From an uncultured Holophagales bacterium (GTDB lineage Bacteria > Acidobacteriota > Thermoanaerobaculia > Multivoradales > UBA5704), in NCBI GenBank assembly GCA_963842525.1, contig CAWJGT010000003.1, forward strand, positions 1,408,001 to 1,472,000: a stretch of DNA of 64,000 nucleotides. Reading direction: 5' to 3'. Under the pieces are notes generated by a model, which saw only the letters and a list, made by a program, of their open reading frames with translations, had not been told where the DNA came from and did no database searches. Position numbers and translations under genes: made by a program. Shown piece after piece: positions 5,273-32,900 of this stretch (position 1 is its first letter; each line of letters opens with the position of its first letter).

Positions 5273-6397
5273 ATGGCCGACCCGCACACGCTCCACACAC
5301 TGACCCTCCGCCACCCCGCCGGCTCCACGCCCGTCCTGGTGGGTGAGGAGGCCCTCGCCTCCGCCCGGCCTCGTCTGGTTGAGTGGCTCTCCGGTCGTAC
5401 GGTGTTCGTGGTCAGCACGCCGCGGGTGCTGGCTCTTCATGGAGATCGATTGGAGCCCTTGCGCGATGCGGCGGCCCGGTGGGTCGTTCTGGAGGTGGAG
5501 GAGGGCGAGCCCGCGAAGACGGTGCGGACGGCCGAGCGGCTGTGGAATGAGATGCTCGCGGCCGGCGGCAAGCGTGACAGCCGCTTGATCGCGTTCGGCG
5601 GCGGCAGCGTCGGCGACCTCGGCGGGTTTGCGGCCGGATGCTTCCTGCGTGGTATTCCCTTCGTCCAAATCCCCACGACTTTGCTGGCCCAGGTGGACGC
5701 CGCGATCGGCGGCAAGACCGGGGTCGATCTGCCCGGCGGCAAGAACACGGTCGGGTTGTTCCACCACCCGGACCTGGTGGTGTGCGACACCTCGATCCTG
5801 ACCACCCTGCCGCGCGAGGAGCTGCGCTCGGGGCTGGTCGAGGTGGTCAAGATGGCGGCACTGCTCGATCCGGACCTCTTCGTGCGGGTTGAGCAGGACC
5901 TGGAGAAGCTGCTCGGAGGTGGTCCGGAGGGGCCGGCGGCTCTGGGGCCGGTCGTTGCCGCGGCGGTTGCTGCCAAGATTGGCGTCGTCGAGCGGGACCC
6001 GGCCGAGCAGGGGGACCGGCGGCTTCTCAACCTCGGACATACTCTGGGCCATGCCATCGAGTCCGCCTGCGCCTATGGCGGCCTCCGCCATGGCGAGGCC
6101 GTGGGGTACGGCATTCTTTTCGCCCTTCGCCTGGCGGTCCCGCGCGGGCTCGATCCGGCGGTGGCGGAGCGGGTGCACGCCCTCCTTCTCCGTTTCGGGC
6201 TGCCGCCGCTGCCGCCCCTCGACGCCGGCGAGCTCCTCGCCTTGACGGCGCGGGACAAGAAGGCCAGCGAGGCCGGGCTGGTCTGGGTGCTGCCCGCGGC
6301 GCTGGGAGAGGGGAGGATGGTCGCGGGGATCGGAGGCGAGGAGGTCGAGGCCGCGCTGCGCGGCTTTCTGGGCGATCCGTTCGCCTCCGTTGTATAA
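5273..6397 (+). CDS. aroB: 3-dehydroquinate synthase
   Basis: GGGSVGDLGGF, RGIPFVQIPTTLLAQVDAAIGGKTG, LNLGHTLGHAIE, HGEAV. Confidence 0.96.
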   Translation: MADPHTLHTLTLRHPAGSTPVLVGEEALASARPRLVEWLSGRTVFVVSTPRVLALHGDRLEPLRDAAARWVVLEVEEGEPAKTVRTAERLWNEMLAAGGKRDSRLIAFGGGSVGDLGGFAAGCFLRGIPFVQIPTTLLAQVDAAIGGKTGVDLPGGKNTVGLFHHPDLVVCDTSILTTLPREELRSGLVEVVKMAALLDPDLFVRVEQDLEKLLGGGPEGPAALGPVVAAAVAAKIGVVERDPAEQGDRRLLNLGHTLGHAIESACAYGGLRHGEAVGYGILFALRLAVPRGLDPAVAERVHALLLRFGLPPLPPLDAGELLALTARDKKASEAGLVWVLPAALGEGRMVAGIGGEEVEAALRGFLGDPFASVV

Positions 6398-12592: not shown

Positions 12593-15038
12593 TTAAGTCT
12601 TCGGCACCAGCTTCAGGACGTTGACCGGCTTTCCGGGCAGGAACCGCGTTGGCCGCCCATCCTGCCAATCGGCGTGACCATCTCGATAGTGGGGCGAGAG
12701 CGGATGAGCGCTCTGACCGACCGGCATGTGGAAGATCCCGGTCTCCTCGTGTCCCGGAGAGACCACCATCCGCTCCGAGGCGCTGAAGATTGGGCTGGCG
12801 ACCCGCGGCATGTCCAGGTCACCCGGGACCGGCTGCGGCGGCACGTCGAGCCAGTGGGCGAGCAGCGGTATCGAATAGCTCAGCGGGTGCCGGACCTCCT
12901 GCATGTTGCGTTCGCCCCAGGTCCGGTCGGCGAGGTTGGGCCCGAATTTGCGCAGGTCGTCGACCGCCCAGTCGGAGACGGCGAGGATCTGCTCGTCCCA
13001 GCTCCTGTAGCGGGGATCGAGCAGATGGGCCGGGCGTTCCGTCACCAGTCGCCAGAGCGGCGCGTCGAAGCGCCGCCGCGCCCGATACCACGGCAGGCTG
13101 GGCTCTTCCTTGAGGCCGGTCAGGCTGGCGAACACCCGCTTTTCGAGCTCATCCCGGAACTTGCGCACCACCCGGTAGGCCACCGAATCGATCGACGCCC
13201 GGCCGGTCCAGGTGGACACCAGGATTCGCCGCAGCTCGCCGCGCCGCGGATCGGCCTTGATCGCTTCCGGCGTGAGCGTCTTGAGCAGCAGACCGTGCCA
13301 GCGCGCCACGAAGAGCGCCCGATCGTCGAGTTGGAGGGCCAGCATGTCATTCGATGTGGCCCGCTCCAGGCTGAGCAGGCGGTCGCGGATCTGCATCGCG
13401 CGCGGCCCCAGGTCGTAGCAACCGTCCCCCAACCGCGCCAGCATCTCGCCGTCGACGGCCCGGTTGTTGGCCGACCAGATCCGGCCGGACGGAGGATCGA
13501 CCACCTTGGGGACTTCGTCCGAGCGCAGCAAGCCGTCCCAGCGATGAGAGCCATCGGCCCAGGAGCCGGGCACCTGACCGCTCCAACCGATGCGCCGCGG
13601 CAGCTTGCCGATGATCGTCCAGCCGATCCGTCCGGAGGCATCGGCGACGATGAAGTTCTGCGGCGGCAGGCCGCTGGCGTGCGCGATTTCGATCGCCTCA
13701 TCGACATTCTTCGCCGTCTCCAGGCCGAGGATCTCCAGGTTCGTCGCCTCCGGGAGGTCGGCGGTCCAGGCGATGGCGCGCCGCGGGCGTCCCTTCCCGT
13801 CCCGCCCGTCCCGGCTGACGACCGGACCCCAGATCGTCTTCACCACGTCGAACGTCTCTTCGGGCCCGTCTTTGACCAGAATGCGCTCGGTGTGGTGCTC
13901 GAAGCGCCGCGGGCCGTCAGGCGTCCGGTAGGCCTCGGGGTCGTGTGGATCGAGCTCGAGATCCACCAGGTCGATGACGTCGGCAAAGCTGTTGGTGAAG
14001 CCCCAGGCGATCCGCCCGGTGCTCCCGACGGCGAGCACCGGCATTCCCGGCAGCGTCACGCCGGTCACCCGCCGCTCGGCCCCGTCGGGCTCCCGCCAGG
14101 TCCAGGAGGCCCGGTACCAGACGTTGGGCACATCGATCCCGAGATGCATGTCATTGGCGAGCAGAGCATGGCCGTCGGCGGTGTGGGCCCCGGAGACCGC
14201 CCAGCCGTTGCTGCCCTTGCCGTCGAGCTGCCCGCTGCCCGTCCACCACCCGGACAGGGTTTCAGCCGCGCCCGGCCGGGACAGCGCGGCTGCCTTCGCG
14301 GCCCGCGGCTTCCGGAGGTCGAGGACGTCCGGACCGGGGATCGGAGGGGTCGGGAAGGCGTCGCCGACGAGCGGCGCATCCCATTCGGTGCCCACCGGCT
14401 CCACGAAGTCGAAGACCTGCGCCGGCACCCGGTCGTGGATCTGCCCGAGCTCCGCCTCGACGCGCCCCCGCGAGTCCTGGAGGTCGAAGTACATGGCATA
14501 GACGGCAAGGAGGCTGTCCTCAGCTCTCCAGGGCCGCGGCTCGGCGCGCAGCAGGATGTACTCGAAAGGCTTGTCGCCCAGCGACTTCAGGCCGGCGTTG
14601 ACCCCTGCCGCATAGGCCTCCAGGAGGGCACGGTGGAGCGGCGTCATACCGGCCAGGACACGGCCGGCCAGGCTGCGAAAACCGTGCAGGCGGCGTTCCT
14701 GGTCGAACTGCACCAGGTTCGGTCCCAACAGCTCGGCGTTCTCTCCGGCCGCCGCCCGCCGCAGCAGATCCATCTGGAAAAAGCGGTCCTGCGCGTGGAC
14801 GAAACCCAAGGCCCGCGCGGCGTCCAGCCGGGTGGCGGCCCTGATCGTCGGCACTCCCAGAGCGTCCCGTTCGATCGTCACCGGCGCCTGGAGCCCCGGG
14901 ATGGCGAGCGCCCCGGAGCTGGGGCAGGCTGGCCACCACCCGGTGCCGCAGCCAGAGGCCGCCGCCCAGCAGTATGAGGAGCAGCACCCCCACCAGCAGG
15001 AGGAGCCAACGGGCGATCCTGCGCTTCCCTCCGGTCAT
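12593..15038 (-). CDS. Penicillin acylase/PvdQ-family Ntn hydrolase with N-terminal membrane anchor; indel near 14909
   Basis: GFVHAQDRFFQMD, GSNGWAVSG (beta-chain Ser), ANDMHL, WSANN, GQSAHPLSPHY; hydrophobic N-terminus lies in the adjacent frame. Confidence 0.9.
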
Positions 15039-15985
15039 TCGGCCGCATCCTGCCCGGCACCGTGCCCCAGGCGCTGGAGCTTGCGCCGGCGCCGCTCGCC
15101 GCGCTCCCGGACCGCGTCGTAATTCCTGGGTGGGCCGCTGTGGAGGAGCAGCCTGGTCAGGGCGCTCACCGTCGGTCCCTCATACAGACGGACGGTCGGA
15201 ATGTCCTGGTGCAACCATTCCTTGAGCACGGCGATGATCCGGACCCCGGCGATCGAAGTCCCCCCGAGCTCGAAGAAGTTGTCGTCGACGCCCACCCGGC
15301 CGAGGCCGAGCTCCTCCTGCCAGAGGCCCGCGATCGCCGCCTCCAGGCGATTGGTGGACGGCGCATACTCGGTGGCGAGCTCCGGGCGCTCGCGGACCGG
15401 TCCGGGCTCGCCCGCCGTCTCCGCCCCCTCCGACGCATCGCGCCGAGCCCGGGGGACCGCCGCCGGGGGCGGCTCGAGCGCGTCGACTGCCGAGCCGAGG
15501 ATCACCGCCAGAATGCGGTCGCCGTCCGCCAGAGCCTCGGGCAACCGCTTGAGCACCACGACTCCCATCCCCTCGCCGCGCACCGGCGTCTCGCCCGCAA
15601 GCGCCAGATCGCACTCCCAGGCATGCAGGCTCTGGCAGGCACGCTCGACGGCCGCGAACGCCGCCGGGCCGGGGACGGTGACCGCCGGCCCGCGCAGGCC
15701 GAGCTCGCCGGCCACATCGGCCGCCAGGCTGTCGCCCTCGTCGCCGCGGAGGCCGCGAAGGAAGACGCCGCTGCGGTCGGCATCCATGCGAGTGGCATAG
15801 GCCGCGTCCTCGAGCGCCTCCTTCGCACCGTCGAGGAAGAGCCGCGCCTGGCTGATCCAGGGCTCGCGGTGGGGATCGTCGGCGGTCGGTCCCACATCGC
15901 CACAGAGATAGCGCCAGAGAGACTCGATCGTCGGCTCACCGGGGAACCTCCCAGCCAAGCCGATAATGGCAGTGACATCAGCCAC
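15035..15985 (-). CDS. Degenerate N-terminal KS fragment fused to an ACP with a basic C-terminal tail
   Basis: IIGLAGRFPG, ACQSL...ECDLALAG and GEGMGVVVLKRL retained; no catalytic Cys or His; ACP motif DNFFELGGTS; tail RERGERRRRKL. Confidence 0.8.
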   Translation of the reverse strand: MADVTAIIGLAGRFPGEPTIESLWRYLCGDVGPTADDPHREPWISQARLFLDGAKEALEDAAYATRMDADRSGVFLRGLRGDEGDSLAADVAGELGLRGPAVTVPGPAAFAAVERACQSLHAWECDLALAGETPVRGEGMGVVVLKRLPEALADGDRILAVILGSAVDALEPPPAAVPRARRDASEGAETAGEPGPVRERPELATEYAPSTNRLEAAIAGLWQEELGLGRVGVDDNFFELGGTSIAGVRIIAVLKEWLHQDIPTVRLYEGPTVSALTRLLLHSGPPRNYDAVRERGERRRRKLQRLGHGAGQDAAE

Positions 15986-16874
15986 GTTGTTCCTTTCGCC
16001 CGACAGGGCTGTTCAGTGGCCCTTCTCGAGCTTCCCAGATCCGGTAGCTGAGACGGCCCTCCTGGAGGTCGTGGTAGGGCTTCGAGCCGGGAGTGGCCAG
16101 GAAGAACTCCATGACCTCCTGGCTGGCCGGTGCGTCGTGGACCTCGAGGTTTCGCGCAGCATAGGAATCGAGCGAGAGGAGGACGTTGGGGGTGATGTCC
16201 TGGTCGCGCTTGAGGGTCAGACCGAGCCCGCGGAGGCAGGACCTGTAGCTCTCCATGTGCTCGACCGGCATGAGGTCGGTGTACAGGAAGCGCCCGCCCG
16301 GGCCGAGCACCCGGGCGACCTCGCGATAAAAGGCGTAAATATCAGGATATAGACAGGAGGACTCCACATTCATGACCACATCGAAGAAGCCGTCGAGGAA
16401 CGGCAAGCGCTCGGACTCGCCATTGACGAAGTAGATATCCGGATTCTTGATCCGCCGCCGACAGAACAGGACGGCGCTCGGCGAGAGATCCAGCCCCCAG
16501 ATCTCCCCGGGAGTGAAAAAGCGATCGATCGTCAGGATCGTCCCGCCACGGCCGCAACCGATGTCGAGGATGTCGCAGTCGTTGAGATCGCAGTCGCCGA
16601 TCAGCTCGAGGACGAGGTCGATGCGGTTGCGGTTGGGCCAGTGCGGGGGCAGTTGGATCTGCGCCGAACGCGGGCGCCCATCGGGCAGGTAGCCGAAGTT
16701 GAAGAAGGTGGCGTCGTCGGCGTAGATGGACTCACTGAGTGAGTCGTTGATCTTGTCGTAGAAGGATTGGACTTCTTGTTTTTTCTGTCGCGCAACAGAG
16801 GCAGGCAGCACTGCATCCGGCGCGCGTCCGGAAAACAGATTCTCGAGGTCCCTCGGGTGGTCCCCTACGTCCAT
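15978..16874 (-). CDS. Class I SAM methyltransferase resembling fatty-acid/phthiotriol O-methyltransferases
   Basis: FFNFGY, ILDIGCGRGG, FDVVMNVESS, LGPGGRFLYTD; GAAGGAG ribosome-binding site. Confidence 0.85.
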   Translation of the reverse strand: MDVGDHPRDLENLFSGRAPDAVLPASVARQKKQEVQSFYDKINDSLSESIYADDATFFNFGYLPDGRPRSAQIQLPPHWPNRNRIDLVLELIGDCDLNDCDILDIGCGRGGTILTIDRFFTPGEIWGLDLSPSAVLFCRRRIKNPDIYFVNGESERLPFLDGFFDVVMNVESSCLYPDIYAFYREVARVLGPGGRFLYTDLMPVEHMESYRSCLRGLGLTLKRDQDITPNVLLSLDSYAARNLEVHDAPASQEVMEFFLATPGSKPYHDLQEGRLSYRIWEAREGPLNSPVGRKEQRG

Positions 16875-16932: not shown

Positions 16933-19900
16933 TCAATCTGACTCGCGTCCGTCCTCGACGGCGGCGAGAGCGCTCTCCAGATGCTCCACCAGTTGATCGA
17001 GGGCCGGCCTCTGGAGCAGGGTCACGTGGTCAGCATCCCGGATGAGATGAGCTTCGGTCCTGGCAAGCTGCGCCCAGCCCGACGTGAGATCCGTGGCCCC
17101 CGGAGCCAGCGAGGCGTCGGCCCGGAAGATGGTCACCCGACCGCCGTAGGGGCGCGGCAGGTAGCTCTCCACGGTTTTCATGGTGCGGCGGTACAGCTCG
17201 AAGCGCTCCCGCAGCCACGGCTTTCCCAGGTCCGGAGCCAGCCCCCCCTCCCGCGCCAGCTCGAGCAGACGGTCGAGGCCGGCCTCCACGTCCAACCCTT
17301 GCAGCATTTCGCGAATCAACAGCCTCTGCTCCTCGGAAGGACGCCCGAGCCGTGCGAAAGCGATCAGGAGCCCGGTGTCATCGACGGCTTCGAGTCGCCC
17401 ATCCGGTGGTGACCCTGGGTCGAACATCGTCAACAGCGACGTGGTACCGCCCGTGCTCTCGATCTGCCGTGCCATCTCGTAGGCTGTGATGGCGCCAGAC
17501 GACCAGCCGGCCAACAGCCAGGGTCCCTCGGGCTGGACCTCGCGCACCGTCACCAGGTATTGCGCCGCCAGATCCTCCATCGATGGCGGATGACCGTTGC
17601 CGTCCCCGACCGCTTGCAGGCCGTAGACCGGACGCTTCGCCCCGAGCCTCTTCGCCAGCTCCACGTAGGAAAAGACGTCTCCTCCCACCGGATGCATCAG
17701 GAACAGCGGCCTCCCCGCTCCTCCCGGATGCAGACGCGCCAGCGGCGAACGCTGCACAGGCCCCTTCTTGATCACAGCCGCCAGGTGTTCCACCGTCGGC
17801 GCCTCGAACAGCGCCGAGATCGGCACCTTGACCCCGAAGACGCGCTCGATGCGCGCCATCACCTGAACCGCCAGCAGCGAGTGGCCGCCCAGGTCGAAGA
17901 AATGACTGTTCGCTCCGACCCGTTCCAGGCCGAGCACGTCGGCCCAGATGCCGGCGACGAACTTTTCGACCGGCGTCCGCGGCGCCACATAGCTCTCCTC
18001 GCCGCCCTGCTGCTCGGGAGCCGGCAGGGCCTTCCTGTCCACCTTGCCATTGGGCGTGAGCGGCAGCGCCGCGAGCGGCACGAACGCGGCCGGCACCATG
18101 GAGTCCGGCAGCCGCTCGCGTAAAGAGCGACGCAGCACGTCGGCCGCGACGTCGCTCACGACATAGGCCACCAGCCTCCGGTCGCCAGCCCCCCTTTCGA
18201 GGGCGTCCTCGCGCTCCTCCACGACCGCCGCGCGCACTCCGGGCAGCGCGACCAGAGCCATCTCGATTTCACCCAGCTCGATGCGGACGCCGCGGATCTT
18301 GACCTGGTGGTCGGTGCGGCCGAGGAAAAGGATCGTGCCATCCTGCCGCTGGCGGACGAGGTCGCCGGTGCGGTAGAGGCGGGCGCCGGGCACCGCGGCA
18401 AAGAGGTCTGGAACGAAACGCTCCGCCGTCAGGTCAGGGCGGCCGAGATAGCCCCGCGCCAGCCCGGCGCCGCCCGCACACAGCTCGCCCGGCACGCCGA
18501 GAGGCACGGCCTGGTGCAGGCGGTCCATGATCCGTAAACGCACGTTGTCGAGAGGCCGGCCGAGAGGCGTGATCGCCGAGACCTCGCCGGACCGGCACGG
18601 GTGGAACGACACGTCGATGGCACACTCCGTGGGGCCGTAGAGGTTGCACAGCTCGATACCGGGCAGGCGCTCTAAGGCCCGCTCGCAGAGCGACGCCGGC
18701 AAGGCCTCGCCGCCACAGAACAGGAGCCGCAGTGGAGCGCCGCGCAGATCCTCGTCCAGGAACAGGCCGAGGATGGAGGGCACGAGCTGCAGCACGGTCA
18801 CGCCCCGTTCCCGCACCTCGCGCGCCATCACCGCCGGCTCCCGGTGCGCATCCGGCGGCGCCAGCACCAACCGCGCCCCGGTACACAGCGGCAGGAAGAT
18901 TTCCCAGATCGCCGGGTCGAAGACGTGCGTCGTCTTCTGGAGCACGGCGTCAGCTTCGGTCAGTGGGAAGGCGCGCTGCATCCAGAGCAGGCGGTTGGCG
19001 ATGGCGCCGTGCGAGACCAGAACGCCCTTGGGACGGCCGGTCGAGCCCGAGGTGTAGATTACGTAGGCGAGGTGGTCCGGCGAGATCGAGACCTCCAGCG
19101 ATGCCGTGTCATCGCCCGCCAGGTCCGCGAGATCGAGGGTGCGGTCATCCTGGAGCAGCTCCGGAGGGGCACCCGGCCCGGCAATCACGACGGCCGGCCT
19201 GGCGTCGTCCAGCACGGCAGCCATCCTTGCGGCGGGGTACTCCGGGTCCAGGGGCACCCAGGCGGCGCTGGCCTTCCACACCGCGAGCAGGCTCACCACC
19301 ATCTCCGGCGAGCGTTCACAACAGACGGCAACGCGATCTTCGGGCCTCACGCCCCGGCGGATCAGGAGGCGAGCCAGCCGGCTCGCCTGCGCTTCAAGGT
19401 CTCCGGCGGTGAGAGCACGGCCTCCTTGTTCCAGGGCGGTCCGTTCCGGCGCACGCGCGGCCTGCGCCGCCACCAGAGTGGAGAGGACCGGCACGGCGCC
19501 GTGTTCCACCGCTGTGTCGTTCCACTCCACCTGGACCTGCTGCTGCTCCGCCGCGCCGAGCAACGGCAGCTCCCTCGCCCATCGGTCTGGTGCTTCTACG
19601 GCCGCGGCCAGCAGGCGCTCGAAGCTCCCGGCGAGGCGGTCGATGGTCGCGGCGTCGAACAGATCGGTGGCATAGTCGAGCCGGCCGGCCAGCTCGCCGT
19701 CGTCCTCGCCGAGGCTGAGCGTGAGATCGAACCTCGCCATCGCCTCGGTCCCACCCAGCGGCCGCAACCGCAGATCCCGGATCTCCAAGCTCTCGACGGG
19801 AGCGTTCTGCAGCGCGAACATCACCTGGAACAAGGGCGTGTGCGCGAGGCTCCTCTGGGGCGAAAGCTCCTCGACCAGTTTTTCGAACGGCACGTCCTGA

Positions 19901-20905
19901 TGCAGGTAGGCCGCCAGCGCCCTCTTCCGTGCCCTCCCGAGCAGCTCGTGGAACGACGGGCCGCCGGCCCTGTCTCCAGCCCTGCCTCCAGGCAGGTTTC
20001 CACTCAAATCGCCGCGCAGCACCAGCATATTGACGAAGAACCCGATCAGCCCCTCGATCTCCGCCCGGTTGCGGCCGGCGACGGGCGAGCCCACGGCGAG
20101 ATCGTCCTGTCCGCTGATGCGCGCCAGGAGGGCCTGGAAGCCAGCCAGGAGCACCATGAAAAGTGTCGCTCCCTCGCGCCGGGCGAGAGCCGCCATCTGC
20201 TGGGTGAGGCCGGCCGGCAGCCGCACCGGCCAGGAGGCGCCACGTGAGCTCCGCCGGGCAGGCCGCGGCCGGTCGGTCGGCAAGTCCAGCAGCGGCGGCA
20301 GCCCTGCAAGCTCCTGGCGCCAGAACGAAATCTCCTGCTCCAGGACCTCGCCGTACAGCCAGGAACGCTGCCAGACCGCGAAATCCGAGTATTGCACCGC
20401 CAGCTCGGGCAAGGGTGACGGCTGGCCGGCGGCGAAGGCCGGATAGAGCACCCTGACCTCGCGCACCAGGACACCCATGGACCAGCCGTCGCTCGCGATG
20501 TGGTGCATGGTCAGCGCGACGACGTGGTCGCTCGCTGAGAGGCGCAGCAACACGCCGCGCAGCAATGGACCGCGCGCGAGATCGAACGGCCGGCCGGCCT
20601 CGTCTGCGGCCAGGGTGAGCGCCTCCGCCTCGCGCTTTCCCTGGGGCAGGCCTGACAGATCCACCACGGGCACCGGGAACGGCGCGGCCGGCTGGATCAC
20701 CTGGACCGGCGAGCCGTCCAAGCCCTCCAACACTGAGAAGACCGTGCGCAGCGCCTCGTGGCGGTGCACGATCTCGCTGAGAGCGCCCGCCAGCACGCCG
20801 GGGTCGAGCGGCCCTTCGACCCGTAGGGCCACCGGCAGGTTGTACAGCGGGCTGTCCGGATCGAGCTGATCGATGAACCAGAGGCGCTGCTGGGCGAAGG
20901 AGAGG
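16933..20905 (-). other. NRPS module 10, C-A(Gln-like)-T-TE
   Basis: Code DPWQFGLIDK (TycC Gln code is DAWQFGLIDK); TE motifs [16 protein letters not shown]. Confidence 0.7.
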
Positions 20906-23900
20906 GGCCGCGGCTCCTCCGATCCGCCGGCCCGCGGGATGATCGCAGACGGCGCAGACGGCGCAGACGGCGCCGGACGCTCATAGCCGAGGCGTGCGGC
21001 CATCTCCCAGGTCGGCTCACCGAGGGAGTCTGACTGCGCCTCCCGGGAGCGCTCGGCAACCCCCGCCTCGACGCCTTTGTATTGGAGAAACTTCACATCC
21101 CCGAGCATCTTTCCCTCGGCGTGGATGCCATCCGTCATCCGCGCCCGTCCCTCCTGATAGGGATTGACCATGGCGGGGTCGAGCTCGAGCCCCAAGGCGT
21201 CGCAGAGTTTCCGCAGCTCGGCTTCAGGGTGGCGCACCAGGTCCTCGAAACGGATGGGGATCTGGCGTTCCGCCGGCACATCGGCAAGATGCTCCAGGAT
21301 ATTCGCGTGGCTCGCCTGCCAGATCAGCTCGGCCAGCTCGGCCCGTTCGAACGTGTGGGGGTGACGGAAGAACAGCTCGTCGAGCTTGATCTCGTCGAAC
21401 GAGCGGATCGAGGCGTAGGGATGGCGCAGGAGATGAATATAGAAAGGTTTTTCAAACGCTTGCTCGGCCCGCCTCAGGACGGCCAGGTCGAGCGCATAGG
21501 TGGTCGTCTTATCGACCAGGGTCCGGCCGCCCAGCCACTCCTGGAGCTGGCGGTAGAAGCGCTGCGTCGTCCAGCCTTCCTCAACGGCGGCACCGACGAT
21601 CTGCCGCGCCTCCTCGACGCCGCACTGGCGCACCTCCATCACAGCGCGGATCAGACCCTCCAGCCAGAAGCTGTCGCGGCCCGGGAACGCGGCCTCGCGG
21701 TCGGCCATGGTGTTGAACGAGAGCAGCTCGAGCTCCGGGGGCGCGAAAAGCTGCGGATGGCCACCGAGCATGACGCGCAGGAGCGTCGAGCCCGCTCGCG
21801 GCGGGGAGAGGATGAAGATCGCGGGCGGGTTCTTCTCCGCCGCCAGATCCTTGGACTCCGGCAAGGGGGGGATCACCGAGCGGAAGGCGGCGATCCGGGC
21901 CAGGTCGACGCGGCCGGCCGCCGCTCGCGGCGCGCGCGCCACCTCCGCGCCGAGCGACACCTCGCCCCAGAGGCGGACGACGGTCTCCCGCTGCTCGCGC
22001 GCCAGGTAGGCTGCCATCTTCGCCACCGTGGGGGCGTCGAAGAGGACGACGACGTGGATGACCCCGCTCATCTCCCGTTGCAGCCGGTTCATCAGGATCG
22101 CGCCGGTGATCGAGTTGCCGCCGAGATCGAAAAAGGAGTCGTGGATGCCCACGCTCTCCAGGGCGAGCGCCTGGCACCAGAGGCCGGCCAGATACTCTTC
22201 GAGCGGCGTCCGCGGCGCGGCGGCCTCCGCCCCAGCGGCGGGCGCCTCCGGATCGGGCAGCGCCCGGCGGTCGACCTTGCCGTTCGCGGTGCGGGGGAAG
22301 GTCGCGACGGGCACGAAGACCGCCGGGATCATGTAGCTCGGCAGGCGGTCCTGGAGGTGGCTCCGCAGGCTGGCGACGAGGTCCGGGTCCGCTTTGCCGG
22401 CGGTCACCCAGGCGACCAGGCGCTGCGCGGTCCCCGCGCCGCGCAGGTCCACCACCGCCTCCTGGACGGCGGGATGCTCGGCGAGGACCACCTCGATCTC
22501 CCCGAGCTCGATGCGGAAGCCCCGCACCTTGACCTGATGATCGATCCGGCCGAGGAACTCGAGCGCGCCCTCCGTCCGCCAGCGCGCCAGGTCGCCGGTC
22601 CGATAGAGCCGCGCGCCCGCGGCGGCTCCCCCCTCTGTTTCAGACACCGGGTTCGGCACGAACGCCAGGGCGGTGCGCGCCGGATCGCCGAAATAGCCGC
22701 GCCCCACACCCTCGCCCCCGATGCACAGCTCGCCCGGTACGTCCAGGGGTTGCGGCTGGAGGTCCCGGTCCAGGACGTAGAGCTGCATGTTGGCCACCGG
22801 ACGGCCGATCGCCGGGCGCCAGGCCGGGTCGGCCGGCACTTCCCGGATCGGACTGAAGCTGACGTCGTCGGAGCACTCGGTGGGGCCATAGGCGTTGAGC
22901 AGCGGAATGCCGGGATGACGGGCGAGCCAGCGCCGGCAGAGCTCCGGCGGCAGGGCCTCGCCGGTGGGGATCAGCCAGCGCAGGCGCGACAGGTCGTGAA
23001 CGCTCCCCTCCTCGCCCCCGTCCATGATCTCCAGCATCGCCACCAGCAGCGAGGGGACCAGCTCTAGCACCGTCACTCCGTCGCGCACCACCGCGGCGAG
23101 CAGCGCCGCCGGATCGTGGGCGACCGCGTCCGGGTAGATGGCGACGCGGCCTCCAACAGCCAGGGCTGACAGCATCTGCCAGACGGAGATGTCGGAGCTC
23201 TGGGCGGCGTTCTGCGCCACCGTGTCCGCGTTCGTGAGGCCGAACACCTCCAGAGTGATCAGCGTGTGGTTGGTGAGGCCCCGGTGGGGGATCATCGCGC
23301 CCTTGGGCAGCCCGGTCGAGCCGGAGGTGTAGAGGACGTAGGCGAGATGGTCGAGCCCGGCTCGCACCGGCTGTGGCGCCGCCTCGCCGTCCAGGCATAC
23401 CAGGTCCTCCAGCTCCAGAATCTTGAGGAACGGCGGCGCGTCCGGCTCCGCCGCGAGCAGTTGCGGACCCAGGCCACCGCCCGAGAGAAGCAGGCGGGAC
23501 CCGCTCTGGCGCAGCACTCCCAGGGCCCGCGCGGCAGGGTGCTGGGGATCGAGCGGAAGATAGGCGCCGCCGGCCTCGAGAACCGCGAGAACCGCGGTCA
23601 CGAAACCCAGGCCGCGCGGGGACAGGATCGGCACCACCGATTCGGGTCCCACACCGTGGCCGACCAGCACCGCCGCCCAGCGGTGGGTGCGGCGCAGGAG
23701 CTCGCGGTAGGTCAGGCGCTCATCGCCGTAGACGGCGGCCACTGCTTCCGGCGTCCTCTCCGCCTGTGCCGCAAACAGATCCTGAAGGCAGACGGCGGGG
23801 GCGACGAATTGCGAGTCGTTCCACTCGCAGAGGGTCTGGTGGCGCTCGGCCGCGCCGAGGAGGAGCAGAGCGGAGAGATTCCTCCCGGGATCGGCCAGCG

Positions 23901-26900
23901 CCGCCGCGAGCAGGGCCGCGAAGCAATCGCACAGGCGGGCGATGCGCGTGCCGTCGAAAAGATCGCTGTTGTATCGCCACTGGCAGGACAGCCCCCCGTC
24001 GGCCTCGGTGGCGTTGAGTACCAGATCGAACTTGGCTGTGGCGGAGCCAGACTCCATCGGCCGGAGGCGCAGGCCGGGCAGCTCCAACACCCCCATAGGG
24101 GCGTTCTGGAGCACGAACAGGACCTGGAAGACCGGGGAATGGCTGAGGTCGCGCTCCGGGGACAGGTCGTCCACCAGCTTCTCGAACGGGAGATCCTGGT
24201 GGGCGTAGGCGCCCAGGGTGACCTCCCGAGTCCGCCCCACCAGCTCGCGGAAGGACGGATCGCCGGAGAGATCGGCGCGCAGCGCCAGGGTGTTCAGGAA
24301 CAGGCCGATCAGCGGCTCGGTCTCGGCGCGGTTGCGGCCGGCGATCGGCGAGCCGACGACCAGGTCGAGCTGGCCGCTCAACCGGGAGAGCAGGGCCGAG
24401 AGGGCGGCGAGCAGAATCATGAACGGCGTCGCGGCGGTCTCCCTCCCCAGCTCCGCGGCGCCCTGGAGTGGCAACTGTTGGAGCTGCGACCGGCCGCGAT
24501 AGCGCTGCACCGCCGGGCGCGGCCGGTCGGCAGGCAGCGCGAGGAACGGCGGTGCTCCGGCGAGGCTCTCGCGCCACCAGCCGAGCTGGGCCGCGAGGGT
24601 TTCGCCCTGAAGCCGCTGCCGTTGCCACACCGCAAAGTCCGCATACTGCACCGGCAGCTCCGGCAGCGGGGAGGGCTGGCCGGCGGTGAAGGCGGCGTAA
24701 AGTGCCGCCACCTCGCGCACCAGGATGCCCATGGACCATCCGTCGCTCGCAATGTGGTGCACGGTCAGCGCAACCACCTGATCGCGGTCTGCCAAGCGCA
24801 ACATCACGCCGCGCAGCAGGGGCCCGCGCGCGAGATCGAACGGTCGGGAAGCCTCTTCGGCCGCCAGCGCGGAGGCCAGAGACTCGCGCTCCGGAACCGG
24901 CAGTCCCGACAGATCCACCACCGCCAGCGCGAACGGCACCGCCGGCTGGATCACCTGCACCGGCGCGCTCTCCTGCACGGCAAAGACCGTCCTCAACGCC
25001 TCGTGACGGCGCACGATCTCGCCGAGGCAGAGAGCCAGCGCCGCAGAGACGAGCGGCCCTTCGACACGCAGCAACAGCGGCATGTTGTAGAGCGGGCTTC
25101 CCGGCTCAAGCTGATCGAGGAACCAGAGCCGCTGCTGGGAGAAGGACAGAGGCAGGGGTTTCTCCCGGGGCACCCGGACGAGCGGCGGCACGGACACCGG
25201 TTTGGCTGTTTGCAGCGCGGCCTCGACGCGGGCGGCGAGGTCCGCCAGCCGCGGTGCTTCGAAAAGGACACGCACCGGCAGCTCGACGCCCAGAGCACTG
25301 CGGAGACGGGATATCACCTGGGTCGCCAGCAGGGAGTGGCCCCCCAGGTCGAAGAAGTTGTCATTGGCTCCGGCCTCCCGTTCGAGGCCCAGCAGATCGC
25401 CCCAGGTGGCGGCGAGGATCTGTTCGACCTCGGTGCTCAGAGGCACCGCGTCGCCCACCGGCTCGGAGCGCAGCGTTTCCGGTGCGGGAAGAGCAGCGCG
25501 GTCCACCTTGCCATGAACGGTCAGAGGCAGGCGGTCCAGGAGCACGACGGCCGAGGGGATCATGTACTCCGGAAGCTCGCCTTGCAGGAAGCGGCGCAGC
25601 TCCGGCACCAGGCGCCGCGCCACCTTGTGGCGCAACGGATCGTTGGCGTAGGCGTGCGCCGGCAACCCCGCGCGCTGCCTCGGTGGCGAGGGCACCGCCA
25701 CCCCATCGGCACCGAGCCGCAGCACTGCGGCAAAGCGGTATGGATCCCTGGGATCCCAGGTCAGGCCGACCGAATAGCCGAGCTGCTCGCCGAGCTGCCA
25801 CAGCTCCTCGGGATCGATCGCTTCCGCGGAGGCCGCGCGTTCCGCGATCACCTGCCGCAGCTCCCCCACCGTCCCCCCCTCGGATCCGACCCCCTGGTCG
25901 AGCCCCGCCAGGAGCGTCACCGCCGCCGCTTCGACGGCGAGCCGACGGTTGGGGATCGCCGTCAAGGCCAGCGTCCGCGGACCAGCCTCCAGCCGCTCGG
26001 CCAGCTCGGAGAGCGACAGGTTTTGTGCCTGCCAATCGAGCCAGTCGAGAGCGTCGTCCGGCTCTTGCAGCGCGCCGACATGGAGCACGGCGTCATAGCG
26101 GAAACGGCTCAGCTCGTTGTGATACCGGCCGCGCTTTACCAGGATCTCGACGTGCCGGATCTCCGGCAATCGCCGCGCCAGGGCGAAGAAGAAGCCGGGG
26201 TCGACCAGCAACTCCTCCTCGGTCGCCAGACGCCGAAGAATGCGCTGCCGGAGATCCGCCACCGGGAGATCGTCCGCCGAACGGTACAGCTCGACCGAGG
26301 TCTGGAGCGATTCGAGGAGTGGCAGGCTGCGCAGGTCGCCAAGGAAGACCCGGCCGCCGTGAGCCACGCTCGCGACCGCCCCTTCGACGACACGGATGAG
26401 ATAGTCGATCCCGGGGAAATACTGCGTCACCGAGTTGAGGACGACTGTGTCGAAGTCCCCCGCGGCCACACCGCTCCAGTCGTCTGCCGTCCGGCATTCG
26501 AGGGAGACGCCCGGCAGACCGCCTGTCCGCTCGATCTGTCGGCGGATTCCTTCCAGGGCGACAGACGAAAAGTCGGTGCCTTGATAGATCTCTGCGTGCG
26601 GCGCCACCCGGAACAGCAGCAGGCCGGTACCACAGCCGACCTCCAGTATCCGGCGTCCGCCGAGAGCGAGCACTCGTTCTACCGTCCGGTCCACCCACTC
26701 ACGCATCTCCTCGGCAGGGATCGGAGCGTCCGTGTAGCTGCTGTTCCACCCTTCGACGTTGAAGGTGGCGTCGACCTCGATCCCAGTGGGTTCTGAGGCG
26801 CCGTAGGTCTCGTCGTAGAGAACCTGCCAGGCGGCGATATGCTCCGCATCGGCGGCTGCCTCCGACAGCATGCAGCGCACCACGTAGGCCACCAGACGCT

Positions 26901-29900
26901 TGCCCGACGGATCGTCCTGCACGGCGGCCACCGCCTCGCGCACTTCCGGATGGCGGCCGAGGGAGCTCTCCACCTCCCCCAGCTCGATGCGGAATCCGCG
27001 CACCTTGACCTGGTGGTCGAGACGGCCGAGAAACTCGATGTTGCCGTCGGCCAGGCGCCGCACGCGGTCACCGCTGCGGTAGAACCGCTCACCGCCGCAG
27101 AGGACGTACTTCTCCGCGGTCAGCTCGGCGCGGCCGAGATAGCCGCGCGTGACGCCCCGGCCGCCGATCCACAGCTCGCCCGGCACGCCGATGGGCAGCA
27201 GCTCTCCGTCCGCGCCGCGACCGTTCCGAACATCGAGCACGGCGCCAGCCAAGGGCCGGCCGAGCAGCGGCCTCGCCGGTTCGGGAGGCGGCGGCACCGG
27301 GTGCGCGGTGCACAGGATGGTCCCTTCGGTCGGCCCGTAGAGCACCCAGACTCGCGCGGCTGGGAAGGTCTCTCGCAGATCCTCCAACAGCTCGCCAGGA
27401 ACGGCGTCGCCGCCGACGAACACCGCGCGCAGTCTTTGGATATCAGCGCCCCGCCGGCGAATCGCGTCGACGACCTGCCGCATCAACGCCGGCACGGCGT
27501 GCAGACAGGTCATCTCCCCGAGACGGTCAGCCAATCCCTCCACATCCAACGTCGGCCGCAGCGGGAAGAGCACCGCCGTGCCGCCGCTGAGCAACGGCGA
27601 CAGCAGCTCGAAGAGGAAGATGTCGAACGTCGAACTCGCCAGGCAGGGCATGCGGTCGCCTGTTCCAAAACCGAACAAGGCCCGGGTGGCGGCGAGGGTG
27701 GCCGCGAGCATGCCGTGCTCCACCTGCACCGCCTTGGGCCGGCCCGTCGTGCCGGAGGTGTAGATCAGATAGGCGAGGCTGTCCGCGGCAGGCAGGCCGA
27801 GAGGCTCGTCCCCGTCGCCCTCCAGCTCTTCCAAGAGAAGAATTTCTCCACCGTACGGCGGGAGGCTCGGGAGAAGGTGCCGCTGAGTGACCAGCAGCAG
27901 GACCGCCGCATCCTCCAGCAGGAAAGCGACGCGCGCCCGGGGATGCGCGGGATCCAGGGAGAGCCAGGCGCAACCGGACTTGAGGATGGCCAGCACCCCT
28001 ACCACCAGGTCCGGGGTGCGTTCGACGCAAAGCCCCACTACCACTCCCGGTCCGGCTCCCAGCGCGCGCAGGCTCCGGGCCAGCCGGTCCGACCGGCGGT
28101 CGAGCGCGCGGTAGGTGAGGCTCGCCTGCTCGTCCCCGGCAAGAGCCACCGCCACAGCCTCGGGGGCGCGGCGCGCCTGCGCCGCGAACAGCTCGATGAC
28201 ACCCGGTGCGGCCGGAACGGGCGTGTCGTTCCACTCGGCACGGAGCTGGTGGCGCTCGCCGTCCGACAACAGCGGAAGATCCTGGAGGACCCGGCCAGGA
28301 TCGGCCGCACCCGCCGCGAGGAGCGTCGTCAGATGGCCGGCGAGACGCAGGATCGTGGCGGCATCGAAAAGATCGGCCGTGAAATCGAGCCGGCCTCCCA
28401 GCTCTCCGTCGGCCTCCGTGAAGGTCAACCCCAGCTCGAATTTCGCCGTCCCCGCATCCCGCAAGGAAGAGGTGATCGACAGGCCTTCCAGGTCGACCCT
28501 TTCGTACGGAAAGTTCTGCAGCGCGAACATCACCTGGAACAGGGGCGTGTGTGCGAGGCTCCTCTCCGGGGCGAGATCCTCGACCAGCCTTTCAAACGGC
28601 ACGTCCTGGTGCATGTAGGCCGCCAGCGCCGTCTCGCGCACCCGGCCGAGCAGCTCCCGGAACGACAGCTTTCCTGTCACTTGACCGCGCAGCACCAGAG
28701 TGTTGACGAAGAACCCGATCAGTCCTTCGATCTCCACGCGGTTGCGCCCCGCCACCGGCGAGCCGATCGCGAAATCGTCCTGGCCGCTCACGCGCGCCAG
28801 GAGAGCCTGGAAGCCGGCCAGGAGCACCATGAACAGCGTCGCTCCCTCGCGCCGGGCGAGAGTTTCCAGAGTCCGCGTGAGCCCGGCCGGAACCCACACA
28901 GGGCAGGTGCCGCCGCGGAAGCTCTGCACCGCGGGACGCGGACGGTCGATGGGCAGCTCCAGCACCGGCGGCAGGCCCGCGAGCTGCCGGCGCCAGAAGC
29001 CGATCTCCTCCTCCAGAACCTCGCCATGCAACCAGGAGCTTTGCCACAGAGCAAAATCCGCATACTGCACGGACAGCTCCGGGAGCGGCGACGGCACATT
29101 CTGGGCGAACGCTGCATAGAGCGTCGTGGCCTCGCGCACCAGGATACCCAGCGACCAGCCGTCGCTCGCGATGTGGTGCATCGTGAGCGCCGCCACGTGC
29201 TCCGCTTTTTTCCCAGAGCCATCGAGCCGCAGCAGCACGCCGCGCAGCAGCAGATCGCGCTTGAGATCGAACGCGCGGCCGGCCTCGTCTCCCACCAGAA
29301 CGGGAACCAGTTTTTCGCGTACGGCTTCCGGCAATCCCGACAGGTCGACCACGGGCAGCGCGAACGGCGCCGCTGGTTGGATCACCTGCACCGGCGCGCC
29401 TTCCAGGCCCTCTGACACCGCAAAAACCGTCCGCAACGCCTCGTGGCGGCGCACGACCTCACCGAGGCAGAGCGCCAGCACGCCACGATCCAGTGGCCCC
29501 TCGACGCGGAGCGCGATGGGGATGTTGTAGAGCGGGCTGCCCGGTTCGAGCTGATCGATGAACCAGAGACGCCGCTGGGCGAACGACAGCGGCAAGGGCT
29601 CTTCCCGGGGGAACGGAAGCAGGGGCGGAGCGATCGCCGTGGTACCGGCCCGCATCGCCTCGACCCGGGCGGCGAGGTCCGCCAGCCGCGGAGCTGTGAA
29701 GAGATCGCGCAGAGGCAACTCGACGCCGAAGGCGCTGCGCAGCCGCGACACCACCCGGGTGGCCAGCAGGGAGTGCCCTCCCAGATCGAAGAAGCTGTCC
29801 GTCGCTCCGACCTGTTCGCGACCGAGCAGCTCGCCCCAGATGCCGGCAACGACCTCCTCGACCGGCGTCCGCGGCGCGACGAACGCTTCGTCAGAGCTTC

Positions 29901-32900
29901 TGCCACTCCGGAGCCGGCAACGCCTTCCGGTCCACCTTGCGGTTGGGCGTCAACGGCAGCTCGGCGAGAAGCGTGAAGGTGGCCGGCACCATGAACTCCG
30001 GTAACCGCTCGCGCAGGAAGGAGCGCACCTCAGGCACCGCCAAGGTGATCCCGGCGGCCGGCACCAGGTAGGCCGCCAGGAAGCTTTCCGGTCTCACCAC
30101 GACGACCGCCTCGCGGACCCCCGGGAAGCCGCCGAGCACCGACTCGATCTCCCCCAGCTCGATGCGGAAGCCGCGGATCTTCACCTGCGTATCGGCCCGC
30201 CCGGCGAACACCGCTTCGCCGTTCGGCAGATAGCGTCCGAGGTCGCCCGTCCGATAGAGATCGGCTGCGAAGCGCTGAGAGGTGAGCTGCGGATCGCCCA
30301 GATATCCAAGGGCGATGTGCGGGCTCCGCACCGAAACCTCGCCCATCTCGCCGATGCCGGCCAGCCCGCCGCCCGGGTTGAGCACCAGGAGCTGGACGTC
30401 CGGAATACCGCGGCCGAGCGGCAGGATCTCCCGCGGCTCGCGGTCGTCGGCAACGTGGTAGCCGACGGCGCGTTGCGTCTCGGTGGAACCGTAGTAGTTC
30501 ACGCAGGTGACGTTCGGGGCCAGCGAGCGCAGCCGCGCCACGTCACGGCGGGTGAGGACATCCCCCACCAGGAACGCATAGCGCAGTGACGGGACCTCAA
30601 GGCTGAGGACACCGAGATCACCCGGCGCTTCGGTGGTCAGCACCTGACCCAGAGCGGGCGTGAGATGGGTGATCGTCACCGCCGCACGGCGCATCCAGGC
30701 GGCGAGCGCGCCCGGATCGTCCATCGTTTTCGGATCGGGGATCACCACCGCAGCGCCGAGCTGTAACGGAGTGAACAGGTCGCGGTGCAGCGGATCGTGC
30801 GCCAGGCCCGACAGCATGCTGAAACGGTCGGCGGCCGACAGATCAAAGCGCTGGCGCAGCCACGGGATGAAATGCGACAGCGAGCCGTGGCGGCCGAGCA
30901 CCCCCTTCGGCACGCCCGTCGAGCCGGAGGTGAACGCCACATACGCGGTGTCGTCCGGTCCGATCTCCACGGGCGCAGGAGCTGCCGGGAAAGCCGAAAG
31001 GACATCCATTTCCCCGGCATTGTCAGCCTTCGCCGGCAGGGTCAGGCGGCAGGAGCAACTGAGAGCGTCGAGAGCGCCGTCGATCTCCACCGGGACCGGA
31101 CCGGCCGCCGCGACGCGGAGCCAGGCGGCTGGCCGCGCGATCTCCAGCATCTGGGCCTGGCGCGCCGCCGGATAACGAGGATCGAGCATCAGGAAGGTGG
31201 CCCCTGCCTTGAGAGCTCCCAGCACGCCCCAGACCAAAGGCGCGCTGCGGTGAGCCCAGAAGGCCACCACGTCCCCGCGCCGCACGCCACCCGCCTGGAG
31301 GAACGCGGCGAGCCCGTCGGAGCGCTCGTCGAGCTCGCCGTAATTCCAGGACTCCGCCGGATCCGCCGCCGCGAGCGCCCCGGGGTCTCGTCGGGCATGG
31401 CGGGCGAAGATCTCGTGGACCGCGCCCTCCCAGGCTGCCGACAGCTCCGCGGCCGGATCGGGCAGCAGCTCACGCGACGCGGCGGTGACCAGTGCGTGCC
31501 GCCCCACCGGCTCCTCCGGCCGCTCCAGCGCCTGCTCCAGGAACAGCGCGAGCTGGTCGAGCAGGTCCTCCATCCGCGCCGCGTCGAACAGGTCGGCGTT
31601 ATAGACCAGGTTCACCTGGACTCCGCCGTCTCCTTCGCTCAGATAGAGCGTCATGTCGAGCTTGGAGAGAGGCGCCGACGGCGCCATCCCCGCCCCGTCC
31701 AGCTCCAGGCCAGGGAGGCGCATCGCGGCGGTCGGTACGTTGACCAGGTTGACCATCACCTGGAAAAGCGGCGTCCGTGAAAGGTCGCGCTGCACGGGGA
31801 GGGCCGCGAGGACCGCTTCGAAAGGCACGTCCTGATGAGAATAGGCACCGAGGGTGACCTCCCGCACCTGCTCCACCAGACTGCGGAAGCCAGGCTGGCC
31901 GCCGAAGCCGGTGCGCAGGACGAGCGTATTCAGGAAGCAGCCGATCAGCTCCTCGGTCTCTACCGCGCGACGACCGGCCACCGGCGCGCCCACCAGGATG
32001 TCATCCTGACCGCTGTGGCGGTGCAGCAACGTCTGGATCGCGGCGAGGAGCGTCATGAACAGCGTGGCGCCGTGGGAGCGGCCGAACCGGGTCAATCGCC
32101 CTGTGAGCTCGGAAGAGAGGATGCGCGCGGCACCCCCGCCGCGATAGGTCTGGACGGGCGGCCGAGGGCGGTCGATCGGCAGATCGAGCGGCGATATCTG
32201 CGATGTCTCGCCGCCCAGGAGATCGAGCCACCAGGCGAGCTCCTCCTGCCGCGTTCCCGCGACCAGCTCGCGCTGCCACACCGCGAAGTCGGCGTATTGC
32301 ACCCGCAGTTGGCCGAGAGACGACGGACGATTCTCGGTGAAAGCGCCGTACAGCTCGCCGATCTCGCGCACCAGGAGCTGGAGCGACCAGCCGTCACAGA
32401 CCACGTGATGCACCACCATCAGGAGCTGGTGGCGCTCGGGTTCGAGCCGCAGGAGCGCCGCGTCGAGCAGCGGCCCGCGCGCGAGATCGAAGCGGTGCAG
32501 CGCGTGCTCCGCGGCGAGCCGCTCCGCCTCCGCCAGACGCCCGGCGCCCGGCAACGCCGCCAGGTCGACGACCGGCAGCCCAATCTTCAGGTCTGGCAGG
32601 ATGTGCTGGCGGGGGACGCCGTCCACCACCTGGAAGACCGTGCGCAGCACCTCGTGGCGCTCCACCAGACCGCGCAGCGCAGCGCCGAGCGCGGCTCTGT
32701 CGAGACGACCGATGAGCCCGACCTCGCCGGGCATGTTGAAGGTGGGCTCCCCCGGGTCGATGCTGTCGAGGAACCAGAGGCGCTCCTGTGCGAACGACAG
32801 CGGCAGGGGACCTTCCCGGGAGACCGCAACGAGCGGCGGAGCCGCCGGTGCCTGACCGCCGCGCCGGGCCTCCTCGACGACCGCCGCCAGCTCCGCCACG

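Follow-up and report, generated by a model that had tools for sequence, protein, structure and literature searches.

A CurM-type sulfotransferase domain in a probable diaminobutyrate elongation module of a non-ribosomal peptide assembly line of an uncultured Holophagales bacterium

What does a sulfotransferase do in the middle of a non-ribosomal peptide assembly line, and on which residue and which atom does it act? The question is raised by a stretch of 64,000 nucleotides (hereafter the window; positions 1,408,001 to 1,472,000 of contig CAWJGT010000003.1, GenBank assembly GCA_963842525.1) from an uncultured Holophagales bacterium of the Acidobacteriota. The window has a G+C content of about 70% and carries a long minus-strand line of polyketide synthase (PKS) and non-ribosomal peptide synthetase (NRPS) modules, within which an earlier note had placed a sulfotransferase (ST) domain directly after a module for a diamino acid. 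We give an about even chance to the reading that this is a working ST of the CurM family, which would use 3'-phosphoadenosine-5'-phosphosulfate (PAPS), act in cis together with a dedicated carrier domain and sulfonate tethered 2,4-diaminobutyrate (Dab) to a sulfamate before the chain is extended further. Coordinates are those of the window unless another locus is named.

The ST lies in the terminal open frame of the line (16933-29754, minus strand; 4273 codons), which encodes protein P0001 (4273 aa). Pfam matches in P0001 comprise three Condensation, three AMP-binding, four PP-binding, one Thioesterase, one methyltransferase and one Sulfotransfer_3 domain. A phmmer map, for which the protein's own domains were used as queries, yields the order C-A-MT-T-C-A-T-ST-C-A-T-TE (C, condensation; A, adenylation; MT, methyltransferase; T, thiolation or carrier domain; TE, thioesterase). 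The line is a PKS/NRPS hybrid with about 11 modules, of which the ST-bearing one, an elongation module, is the penultimate. The C-A-T-ST span given in the earlier note (20980-25155) agrees with our map within 9 bases, and the one further extension module followed by a Ser-type TE that it had described is found as C-A-T-TE after the ST. The features of this frame are as follows:

16933-29754, minus strand: open frame, (T fragment)-C-A(MT)-T-C-A-T-ST-C-A-T-TE (open reading frame, Pfam, phmmer map)
23824-25164, minus strand: C domain (aa 1531-1977) of the module that contains the ST; its HHIASDGW is at aa 1666 (Pfam, motif, phmmer)
22255-23799, minus strand: A domain with the Dab-type code DIWEITADDK, aa 1986-2500 (alignment columns, NCBIfam NF004282)
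22000-22224, minus strand: T domain, aa 2511-2585, GGNSI, with Ser aa 2548 at 22111-22113 (motif, phmmer)
21850-21999, minus strand: T-ST linker of about 50 aa; the median gap in the family is 48 aa (phmmer, family comparison)
20980-21849, minus strand: ST domain, aa 2636-2925 (Pfam, PDB match, alignments)
19525-20919, minus strand: downstream C domain, aa 2946-3410, acceptor of the chain from the T-ST unit (Pfam, phmmer)
18022-19497, minus strand: last A domain, code DPWQFGLIDK, Gln/Glu-like (code alignment; first amino-acid A region of NF004282, 499 bits)
17767-17991, minus strand: last T domain, GGHSL (motif, phmmer)
16960-17724, minus strand: TE, GWSSG at aa 4083, with Ser aa 4085 at 17500-17502 (Pfam, motif, phmmer)

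By motif search, P0001 contains HHIASDGW three times, and its T domains carry GGHSL except for the GGNSI carrier that precedes the ST. The C domain after the ST has a normal HHxxxDG motif.

Is the inserted domain really a sulfotransferase? A hidden Markov model (HMM) scan, which the earlier note had named as a check on its claim, matched Sulfotransfer_3 (PF13469) on aa 2644-2860 with an E-value of 3.6e-28 and 99.8 bits, well above the cut-off of 27. Compared with PDB chains, the domain matches the ST of CurM (4gbm; residues 29-311 of the 323-residue chain, E 5.4e-58) and that of the olefin synthase OLS (4gox; E 1.6e-57), and the next matches are tyrosylprotein sulfotransferases at E ~1e-6. The 5'-phosphosulfate loop SPPRAGST was located at aa 2650 (21784-21807), as the earlier note had claimed; other motifs are the Glu of PPELELL (21733-21735), the DK of VDKTTTY and RHP...S. 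CurM and the window ST have in common the PRSGST/PRAGST loop, the PPEL Glu, VDK(S/T)xTY and (L/V)RHPY..I.SF. Both solved chains read PPELHLL where the window ST reads PPELELL, the latter being the norm for NRPS-embedded copies. By analogy with sulfotransferases in general, the PPEL Glu and the Lys would be the catalytic acid/base residues, and the Arg...Ser motif would contact the 3'-phosphate. In a 24-sequence multi-phylum alignment the loop Arg and Gly, the PPE Glu, the DK, RHP and the 3'-phosphate Ser are invariant, and all of them are present in the window ST. Of 70 columns conserved to at least 95% among 180 other embedded STs, it keeps 68; the two exceptions are a Ser to Ala change in the loop and a Trp to Ser change near the C-terminus (98% conserved position). 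What lies between T and C is thus a true sulfotransferase of the CurM family, its motifs intact, and it would be expected to depend on PAPS.

How does this arrangement relate to known systems? CurM and OLS carry ACP-ST-TE (ACP, acyl carrier protein) at the end of a PKS, where the beta-hydroxyacyl chain is sulfated for decarboxylative off-loading (PMC11730487, PMC5577590), and PKS off-loading STs are described in CurM, OLS and haliamide HlaB. The window ST shares with them the fold, the family (E ~1e-58 over the whole domain), the motifs and the fusion right after a carrier domain, but it stands behind an amino-acid A-T pair, is followed by a C domain and has PPELELL instead of PPELHLL. In place of the CurM/OLS off-loading unit, with its dedicated TE after the ST and its ketosynthase-acyltransferase-ketoreductase (KS-AT-KR) substrate, we find the ST between C-A-T and C-A-T-TE. 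Closer in position are the starters of cyanopeptolin (OciA), suomilide/varlaxin (AerB) and dysinosin (DysB), which have the order FkbH-PCP-ST-C (PCP, peptidyl carrier protein) and thus an NRPS-embedded ST after a carrier and ahead of condensation, and whose products keep the sulfate (PMC2533009, PMC10143770, PMC6520454). The earlier statement that known ST domains act terminally therefore holds for CurM and OLS and fails for these starters. They differ from the window in being loading modules for FkbH-delivered glyceric acid, whereas the window ST belongs to a late C-A-T elongation module with a basic-amino-acid code; the Pfam scan of P0001 detected 11 families, none of them of the FkbH type, and a C-A pair precedes the T domain. 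The NRPS-embedded STs that we found in the literature were all in glycerate starter modules. A full-text search, outside of which most subscription journals, supplements and MIBiG lie, found no paper on amino-acid A-T-ST-C modules or on the Acidobacteriota modules described below, and a published case may exist. The window domain is a CurM-type ST in a new context, in that its residue is of the Dab type and its module serves elongation.

Sulfazecin offers the chemical precedent for making a sulfamate on a T-tethered diamino acid: SulN uses PAPS to N-sulfonate the side-chain amine of T-tethered 2,3-diaminopropionate (Dap) in the NRPS line (PMC11298585), in agreement with what the earlier note had said of this system. 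SulN is a stand-alone enzyme that acts in trans on Dap in the last module, ahead of beta-lactam closure by a Cys-type TE. The window line, in contrast, has the ST in cis, a Dab-type residue, a further module and a Ser-type TE, and the two are likened by description, not by sequence. We do not find a monobactam line of the sulfazecin type here: the ST is in cis and in the penultimate module, and the TE has GWSSG, with ordinary NRPS, PKS and fatty acid synthase TEs as its PDB matches. Monobactam-type closure, which had already been judged unsupported on account of the Ser-type TE, was rejected on the strength of this motif and these structure matches.

The T-ST-C architecture is no oddity of the window line but recurs in hundreds of NRPSs. 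A word-indexed search (proteins of 2350-7478 aa) gave 599 long NRPSs with T-ST-C at E<=1e-5 among 1717 scored; among the best 120 of these, most named ones came from metagenome-assembled genomes (MAGs) of Thermoanaerobaculia or other Acidobacteriota. Searched exhaustively with HMMER, 1.84 billion cluster representatives gave 5170 matches at E<=1e-3, of which 1153 reach E<=1e-30; the best 150 cluster matches all lie in multidomain proteins of 429-6979 aa. Contig matches were also found in MAGs of Deltaproteobacteria, Gemmatimonadota, Saprospiraceae, Woeseiaceae and Rubrivivax, and cultured Anabaena and Nostoc match too, there with no A domain upstream. In 121 mapped proteins A-T-ST-C and A-T-ST-TE are recurrent, and a protein often has two or three STs; this set includes P0001 and its database twin P0026, which was dropped as a duplicate to leave 120. 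The Acidobacteriota A-T-ST-C and A-T-ST-TE modules resemble that of the window in their ST (56-65% identical), their GGNSI-type carrier and the module position, and differ in having mostly Thr-, Ser- or Tyr-type A domains where the window clade has a Dab-type A domain and an Ala in the loop. The genome of the window itself (9.95 Mb, 34 contigs, 96% complete) has seven embedded STs in long frames. Besides the window ST these are three behind Thr-type A domains, two behind Ser-type ones and one in a C-T-ST module that lacks an A domain; this last module (locus L004, G000:C19:~495,000-504,600) follows a Thr-type module.

Which residue, then, do such domains act on? Specificity codes were read from an alignment of 470 A domains with columns anchored on core motifs, numbered by the GrsA convention, and translated with published code tables. 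Among 166 ST-linked A domains, 59 have Thr-type codes (DFW...), 58 Ser-type (DVWH, DIWH, DLWH), 28 Tyr-type (DAST, DAAT), 2 the homoserine-like DLKN and 4 DIWEITADDK, the remaining 15 being other codes. Codes for Ser, Thr, Tyr or homoserine (Hse) thus occur in 147 of 166 ST-linked A domains but in only 39 of 304 ST-less ones from the same 120 proteins (odds ratio 53; Fisher p 3e-62, an indicative value that overstates independence because the sequences are related). This difference shows the ST to be linked, family-wide, to the residue loaded by its own module, on which it would act. In a wider sample of 137 further representatives with 139 STs, 97 of them with an upstream A domain, we counted 22 Thr, 16 Ser, 9 Tyr, 6 DIWE-type, 1 DLKN and 43 other codes, about 10 of the latter with an acidic pocket (basic-residue-like) and some hydrophobic. 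The carriers differ as well. T domains that precede an ST read GG[N/S/D/T]S[I/L]; GGNSI is the motif of 94 among 173 such domains, and 163 of the 173 have one of the eight most frequent motifs, none of which is GGHSL. Of 311 other T domains, 269 read GGHSL. Judged by motif, the ST-preceding carriers form a distinct subtype, reminiscent of the special carriers before epimerization domains.

Part of the family has a TE in place of a C domain after the ST: T-ST-TE occurs in 18 of the 166 ST-linked modules, and 39 of the 139 STs in the wider sample directly precede a TE. Many relatives (P0020-P0024, P0029-P0032 and others) end in A-T-ST-TE with a Thr-, Ser- or Tyr-type A domain. Such units would suit a transient sulfate that, in the style of curacin or the olefin synthases, serves only to activate a leaving group ahead of elimination or cyclisation, so that the final product is unsulfated. 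The closest characterised relatives do sulfate for activation, and the Ser and Thr beta-hydroxyls of the relatives are formally those of beta-hydroxyacyl thioesters. For the window we nevertheless regard this as highly improbable: a sulfamate on an amine is no leaving group, the Tyr-type modules (28 of 166) are unable to eliminate, and a normal HHxxxDG-type C domain directly follows the window ST. The TE of P0022, one of these relatives, is of the ordinary NRPS type (best PDB match 4zxh), and the CurM TE is absent among its 40 matches; CurM-like decarboxylative off-loading was rejected on this basis as a general reading of the T-ST-TE relatives. Tandem arrangements also occur, with A-T-ST-T-ST and T-ST-ST in P0055-P0058 and P0053-P0054 behind A domains of the DAED(I/L)GTIVK type (basic-residue-like), and these proteins carry PPELALL instead of PPELELL.

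Turning to the residue loaded in the window, the diamino-acid code DIWEITADDK named in the earlier note was re-derived from our alignment, and the A domain most probably loads L-2,4-diaminobutyrate. Its best NCBIfam match is NF004282 (PRK05691, 4334 positions), at positions 3863-4223 in the last A region of this model, with 491 bits, compared with 400 bits for the generic A model TIGR01733. As a control, four other A domains of the line map to NF004282 positions 1132-1623 or 2188-2691. The A regions of the model start near 1132, 2188 and 3720, and it ends about 110 positions after the last; this layout fits the geometry of PvdL, which incorporates acyl, Glu, D-Tyr and Dab in this order (PMC6206403). 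A search for homologues of the A domain found DIWE[ILVM]TADDK in many phyla, with no characterised protein among the matches, and 124 complete domains with this code in 120 proteins form a coherent A-domain type (an N-terminally truncated orthologue fragment, P0296, which carries PF13469, was left out of the 124). The strings DIWELTADDK, DIWELTAD, DIWEITAD and shorter forms were not found in the full text of the literature searched; tables and supplements may contain them. The genome encodes an APS kinase (for PAPS supply) and a homologue of the diaminobutyrate transaminase dat (469.5 bits against an NCBIfam cut-off of 401.6). The dat gene is on a different contig, at least 30 kb away from any NRPS domain; it was discarded as a cluster-linked source of Dab and shows availability only.

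Does the line offer the ST a hydroxyl instead? The other A domains of the window's line have a Cys-type code (with MT), a Gly-type code, two or three branched-aliphatic codes, DVGEVSSIDK (Orn/Dab-like), an Ala-type code, DAHITTHVAK, DPRHFVYRAK and DIFHFGLIL (with MT), followed by DIWEITADDK with the ST and finally DPWQFGLIDK. None of them is of the Ser, Thr or Tyr type, and no hydroxylase family was found among the window ORFs scanned. The absence of an obvious hydroxyl of this kind, together with the SulN precedent, favours N-sulfonation. The orthologous line of another genome (G001, source of locus L021) is a single open frame of 11,003 codons with the order C-A(Thr-type)-T-C-A(DVGEVSSIDK)-T-C-A-T-C-A-T-C-A(DAHITTHVAK)-T in its first part and C-A(DPRHFVYRAK)-T-C-A(DIFHFGLIL,MT)-T-C-A(DIWEITADDK)-T-ST-C-A(Ser-type)-T-TE in its second. 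The ST is found there in the DIWEITADDK module alone and is lacking in the Thr-type and Ser-type ones, which argues that its target is the DIWEITADDK residue and not some chance hydroxyl of the chain.

An active ST could still O-sulfate a hydroxyl, be it on a hydroxylated basic substrate (beta-hydroxy-Dab or a homoserine-like residue), on a residue modified by a hydroxylase acting in trans, or elsewhere in the tethered chain. The hydroxy-amino-acid modules in front of 147 of 166 STs speak for this, as do the Thr modules in front of the closest sister STs and the fact that both of the closest relatives with solved structures, CurM and OLS, act as O-sulfotransferases (PMC5577590, PMC11730487). 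Homoserine-like codes precede STs in 2 of 166 modules, and homoserine is isosteric with Dab. We consider O-sulfation unlikely, however, in view of the lack of hydroxylase families and of Ser/Thr/Tyr-type codes just described, the distribution of the ST in G001, and the A domain itself, which shares its type with 124 ordinary DIWExTADDK domains and has its match in the Dab region of the model shaped like PvdL.

N-sulfonation of Dab would proceed in three steps. The A domain would load its amino acid, most probably L-2,4-diaminobutyrate, on the GGNSI-type T domain. The ST would then move SO3 from PAPS to the side-chain nucleophile of the T-bound residue, or of a peptidyl chain ending in this residue; with the gamma-amine as acceptor, the product would be N-gamma-sulfo-Dab, a sulfamate. 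Finally, the next C domain would add a Gln/Glu-like residue and the Ser-type TE would release the product. A sulfamate is a reasonable expectation, and the use of PAPS, the timing of the transfer and above all the choice of the Dab amine as acceptor are inferred.

Such a route requires a functional ST, and the comparison with orthologues points in this direction. The A(D[IV]WEITADDK)-T-ST unit is present in P0042, P0049 and the loci L021 and L022, and is kept in at least five lineages. The ratio of nonsynonymous to synonymous substitution rates (dN/dS) against L021 is 0.159 for the ST, 0.257 for the A domain, 0.254 for the upstream C domain and 0.338 for the downstream C domain; against L022 the values are 0.218, 0.450, 0.320 and 0.386, respectively. 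At the protein level, the ST is 88-89% identical to its counterparts in P0049 and P0042, compared with 86-88% for the A domain and 72-79% for the C domain that follows. With 68 of 70 near-invariant positions kept, dN/dS values of 0.16-0.22 that are below those of the flanking A and C domains, and the unit intact in the orthologue, the ST looks functional and under purifying selection. The last A domain, at 49-56% identity, varies among the orthologous lines (DPWQFGLIDK here, Ser-type in G001, DVWDRGMIDK in P0042) despite the 86-89% identity of the preceding A(Dab-type)-T-ST unit, and it looks as if the A domain for the terminal residue was recently swapped.

Several points weigh against N-sulfonation of Dab by the window ST. 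The family norm, judging from 147 of 166 linked codes, would be a hydroxyl acceptor, and the 43 other codes among the 97 of the wider sample show that the ST does not stand behind an obvious hydroxyl in every case, so that the acceptor need not be the obvious side chain. A FastTree phylogeny built from 184 ST domains groups the window ST with those of P0042 and P0049 (support 1.0), and this clade is sister to two STs behind Thr modules (support 0.995) within a clade dominated by Ser-type modules. The nesting implies that the Dab pairing arose through an A-domain change in a lineage of O-sulfation context and has been kept since, and the window ST could be an O-sulfotransferase stranded by such a swap. 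The loop position after the Arg is Ser in 178 of 180 relatives and Ala in 2, and the window ST has Ala. None of the 124 other DIWExTADDK modules is followed by an ST. The Dab assignment presumes, moreover, that NF004282 is a model of PvdL and that codes of the DIWEITADDK type stand for Dab, as in the textbook code, and the acceptor atom is purely what we infer. A last point of this kind is the five frame changes, inside domains or linkers, that split the line into six open frames.

The same tree bears on whether the ST works at all, since a Thr/Ser to Dab swap could have left it a catalytically dead relic or a structural spacer. Its clade arose inside Ser-type and Thr-type STs, and it has changes at conserved sites, namely the loop Ser to Ala of the clade and the Trp to Ser of the window copy at a 98% position. 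The loop Ala is common to P0042, P0049, L021 and L022, and the Trp change is absent from L021 and L022. We see only a very slim chance for a dead domain given the dN/dS of 0.16-0.22, the lowest among the large domains of the module, the 68 of 70 near-invariant positions together with all invariant motif residues, and the retention of the unit in at least five lineages. Clade-specific substitutions were considered as a sign of an amine-adapted pocket and dismissed: the second Arg of F.RR.LAEL, H260L and H262Y are also found in the Thr-type sisters, and among the differences of the window clade only the loop Ser to Ala is common to all Dab-clade copies checked.

The frame changes raise the further question of whether the line makes a product in this genome. 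Upstream of P0001, the line consists of five open-frame fragments with about eight further modules, identified from ORFs and domain maps:

29891-59918, minus strand: upstream part of the line as a whole
55563-59918, minus strand: fragment KS-AT-T-partial C
52368-55391, minus strand: fragment A(MT)-T
50003-52396, minus strand: fragment C-A
36652-50229, minus strand: fragment
29891-36970, minus strand: fragment
29755-29890, 36652-36970, 50003-50229, 52368-52396 and 55392-55562: frame-break regions

The break at 29755-29890 lies between A and T of the module preceding the ST module and goes along with one extra base near 29899 compared with G001. One contig from each of two soil runs (96-98% overall identity) lacks one base at 29897 or 29898, the only break that this comparison covered, and dropping this base joins the two frames across the A-T linker. 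Of the sequencing runs found to hold this sequence, none is of RNA, and their shares are small (0.11 or less). As the base is absent from the soil contigs and from G001 and its removal restores the frame, the break probably reflects a fault of the assembly, or else a change that happened very recently. It is quite unlikely, in our estimate, that the whole line is a pseudogene without a product, whatever the capability of its ST. Five frame breaks in about 43 kb, splitting A domains, and the KS fragments adjoining the cluster would fit such a state, and local decay of the cluster is conceivable because other NRPS frames of the same genome run unbroken over 8098 and 7069 codons. On the other side stand the soil contigs and the intact 11,003-codon orthologue without the extra base, and the ST-bearing frame, which is open over all its 4273 codons.

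The surroundings of the line contain several further genes. Past the TE are a penicillin-amidase-family (Ntn hydrolase) gene, a KS-only ORF, a short ORF with a KS fragment and a carrier, and a stand-alone S-adenosylmethionine-dependent methyltransferase; the ORFs in this region lie at 12593-14881 (minus), 10744-12576 (plus), 15035-15985 (minus) and 15978-16874 (minus). The amidase-family gene hints at the removal of an acyl chain at maturation, and the KS pieces look like remnants. A divergent second line starts at 58893-63998 (plus) and continues in locus L038 (34-6780), with a fatty-acyl-AMP-ligase-like domain, T, C and A, then KS-AT-T beyond the window end, and probably represents a lipopeptide cluster of its own or else the lipid-initiation arm. 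About 6.6 kb beyond the end of the window, between two further NRPS/PKS genes, we found a stand-alone 637-aa protein with Sulfotransfer_3 and an SCP2 sterol-carrier domain (L038:8589-10502; G000:C3:1478589-1480502). A 3-dehydroquinate-synthase-family gene (5273-6397, plus) lies among the housekeeping genes aspS, ftsY and ribD, about 10 kb off the end of the cluster.

Taken together, a bolder and more tentative reading, which we put somewhat below an even chance, is that the line makes N-gamma-sulfo-Dab with a CurM-type domain whose chemistry has moved from O- to N-sulfonation, and that it is the tip of a large class of in-line NRPS STs (599 NRPSs; 1153 clusters). Sulfated non-ribosomal peptides are rare in the literature, and in-line ST modules are abundant in Thermoanaerobaculia and other Acidobacteriota, where they have their own carrier-domain subtype; the class looks unexplored. 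As a rule, T(GGNSI)-ST behind a Ser, Thr, Tyr, Hse or Dab module would predict a sulfated residue, which would sharpen structure prediction for biosynthetic gene clusters from uncultured soil bacteria. If confirmed, the Dab pairing would mean that a peptide sulfamate can be made on the assembly line, and that one ST lineage has switched in nature from an O to an N acceptor. If true, these modules would hint at a hidden world of sulfated non-ribosomal peptides, mainly from uncultured soil Acidobacteriota.

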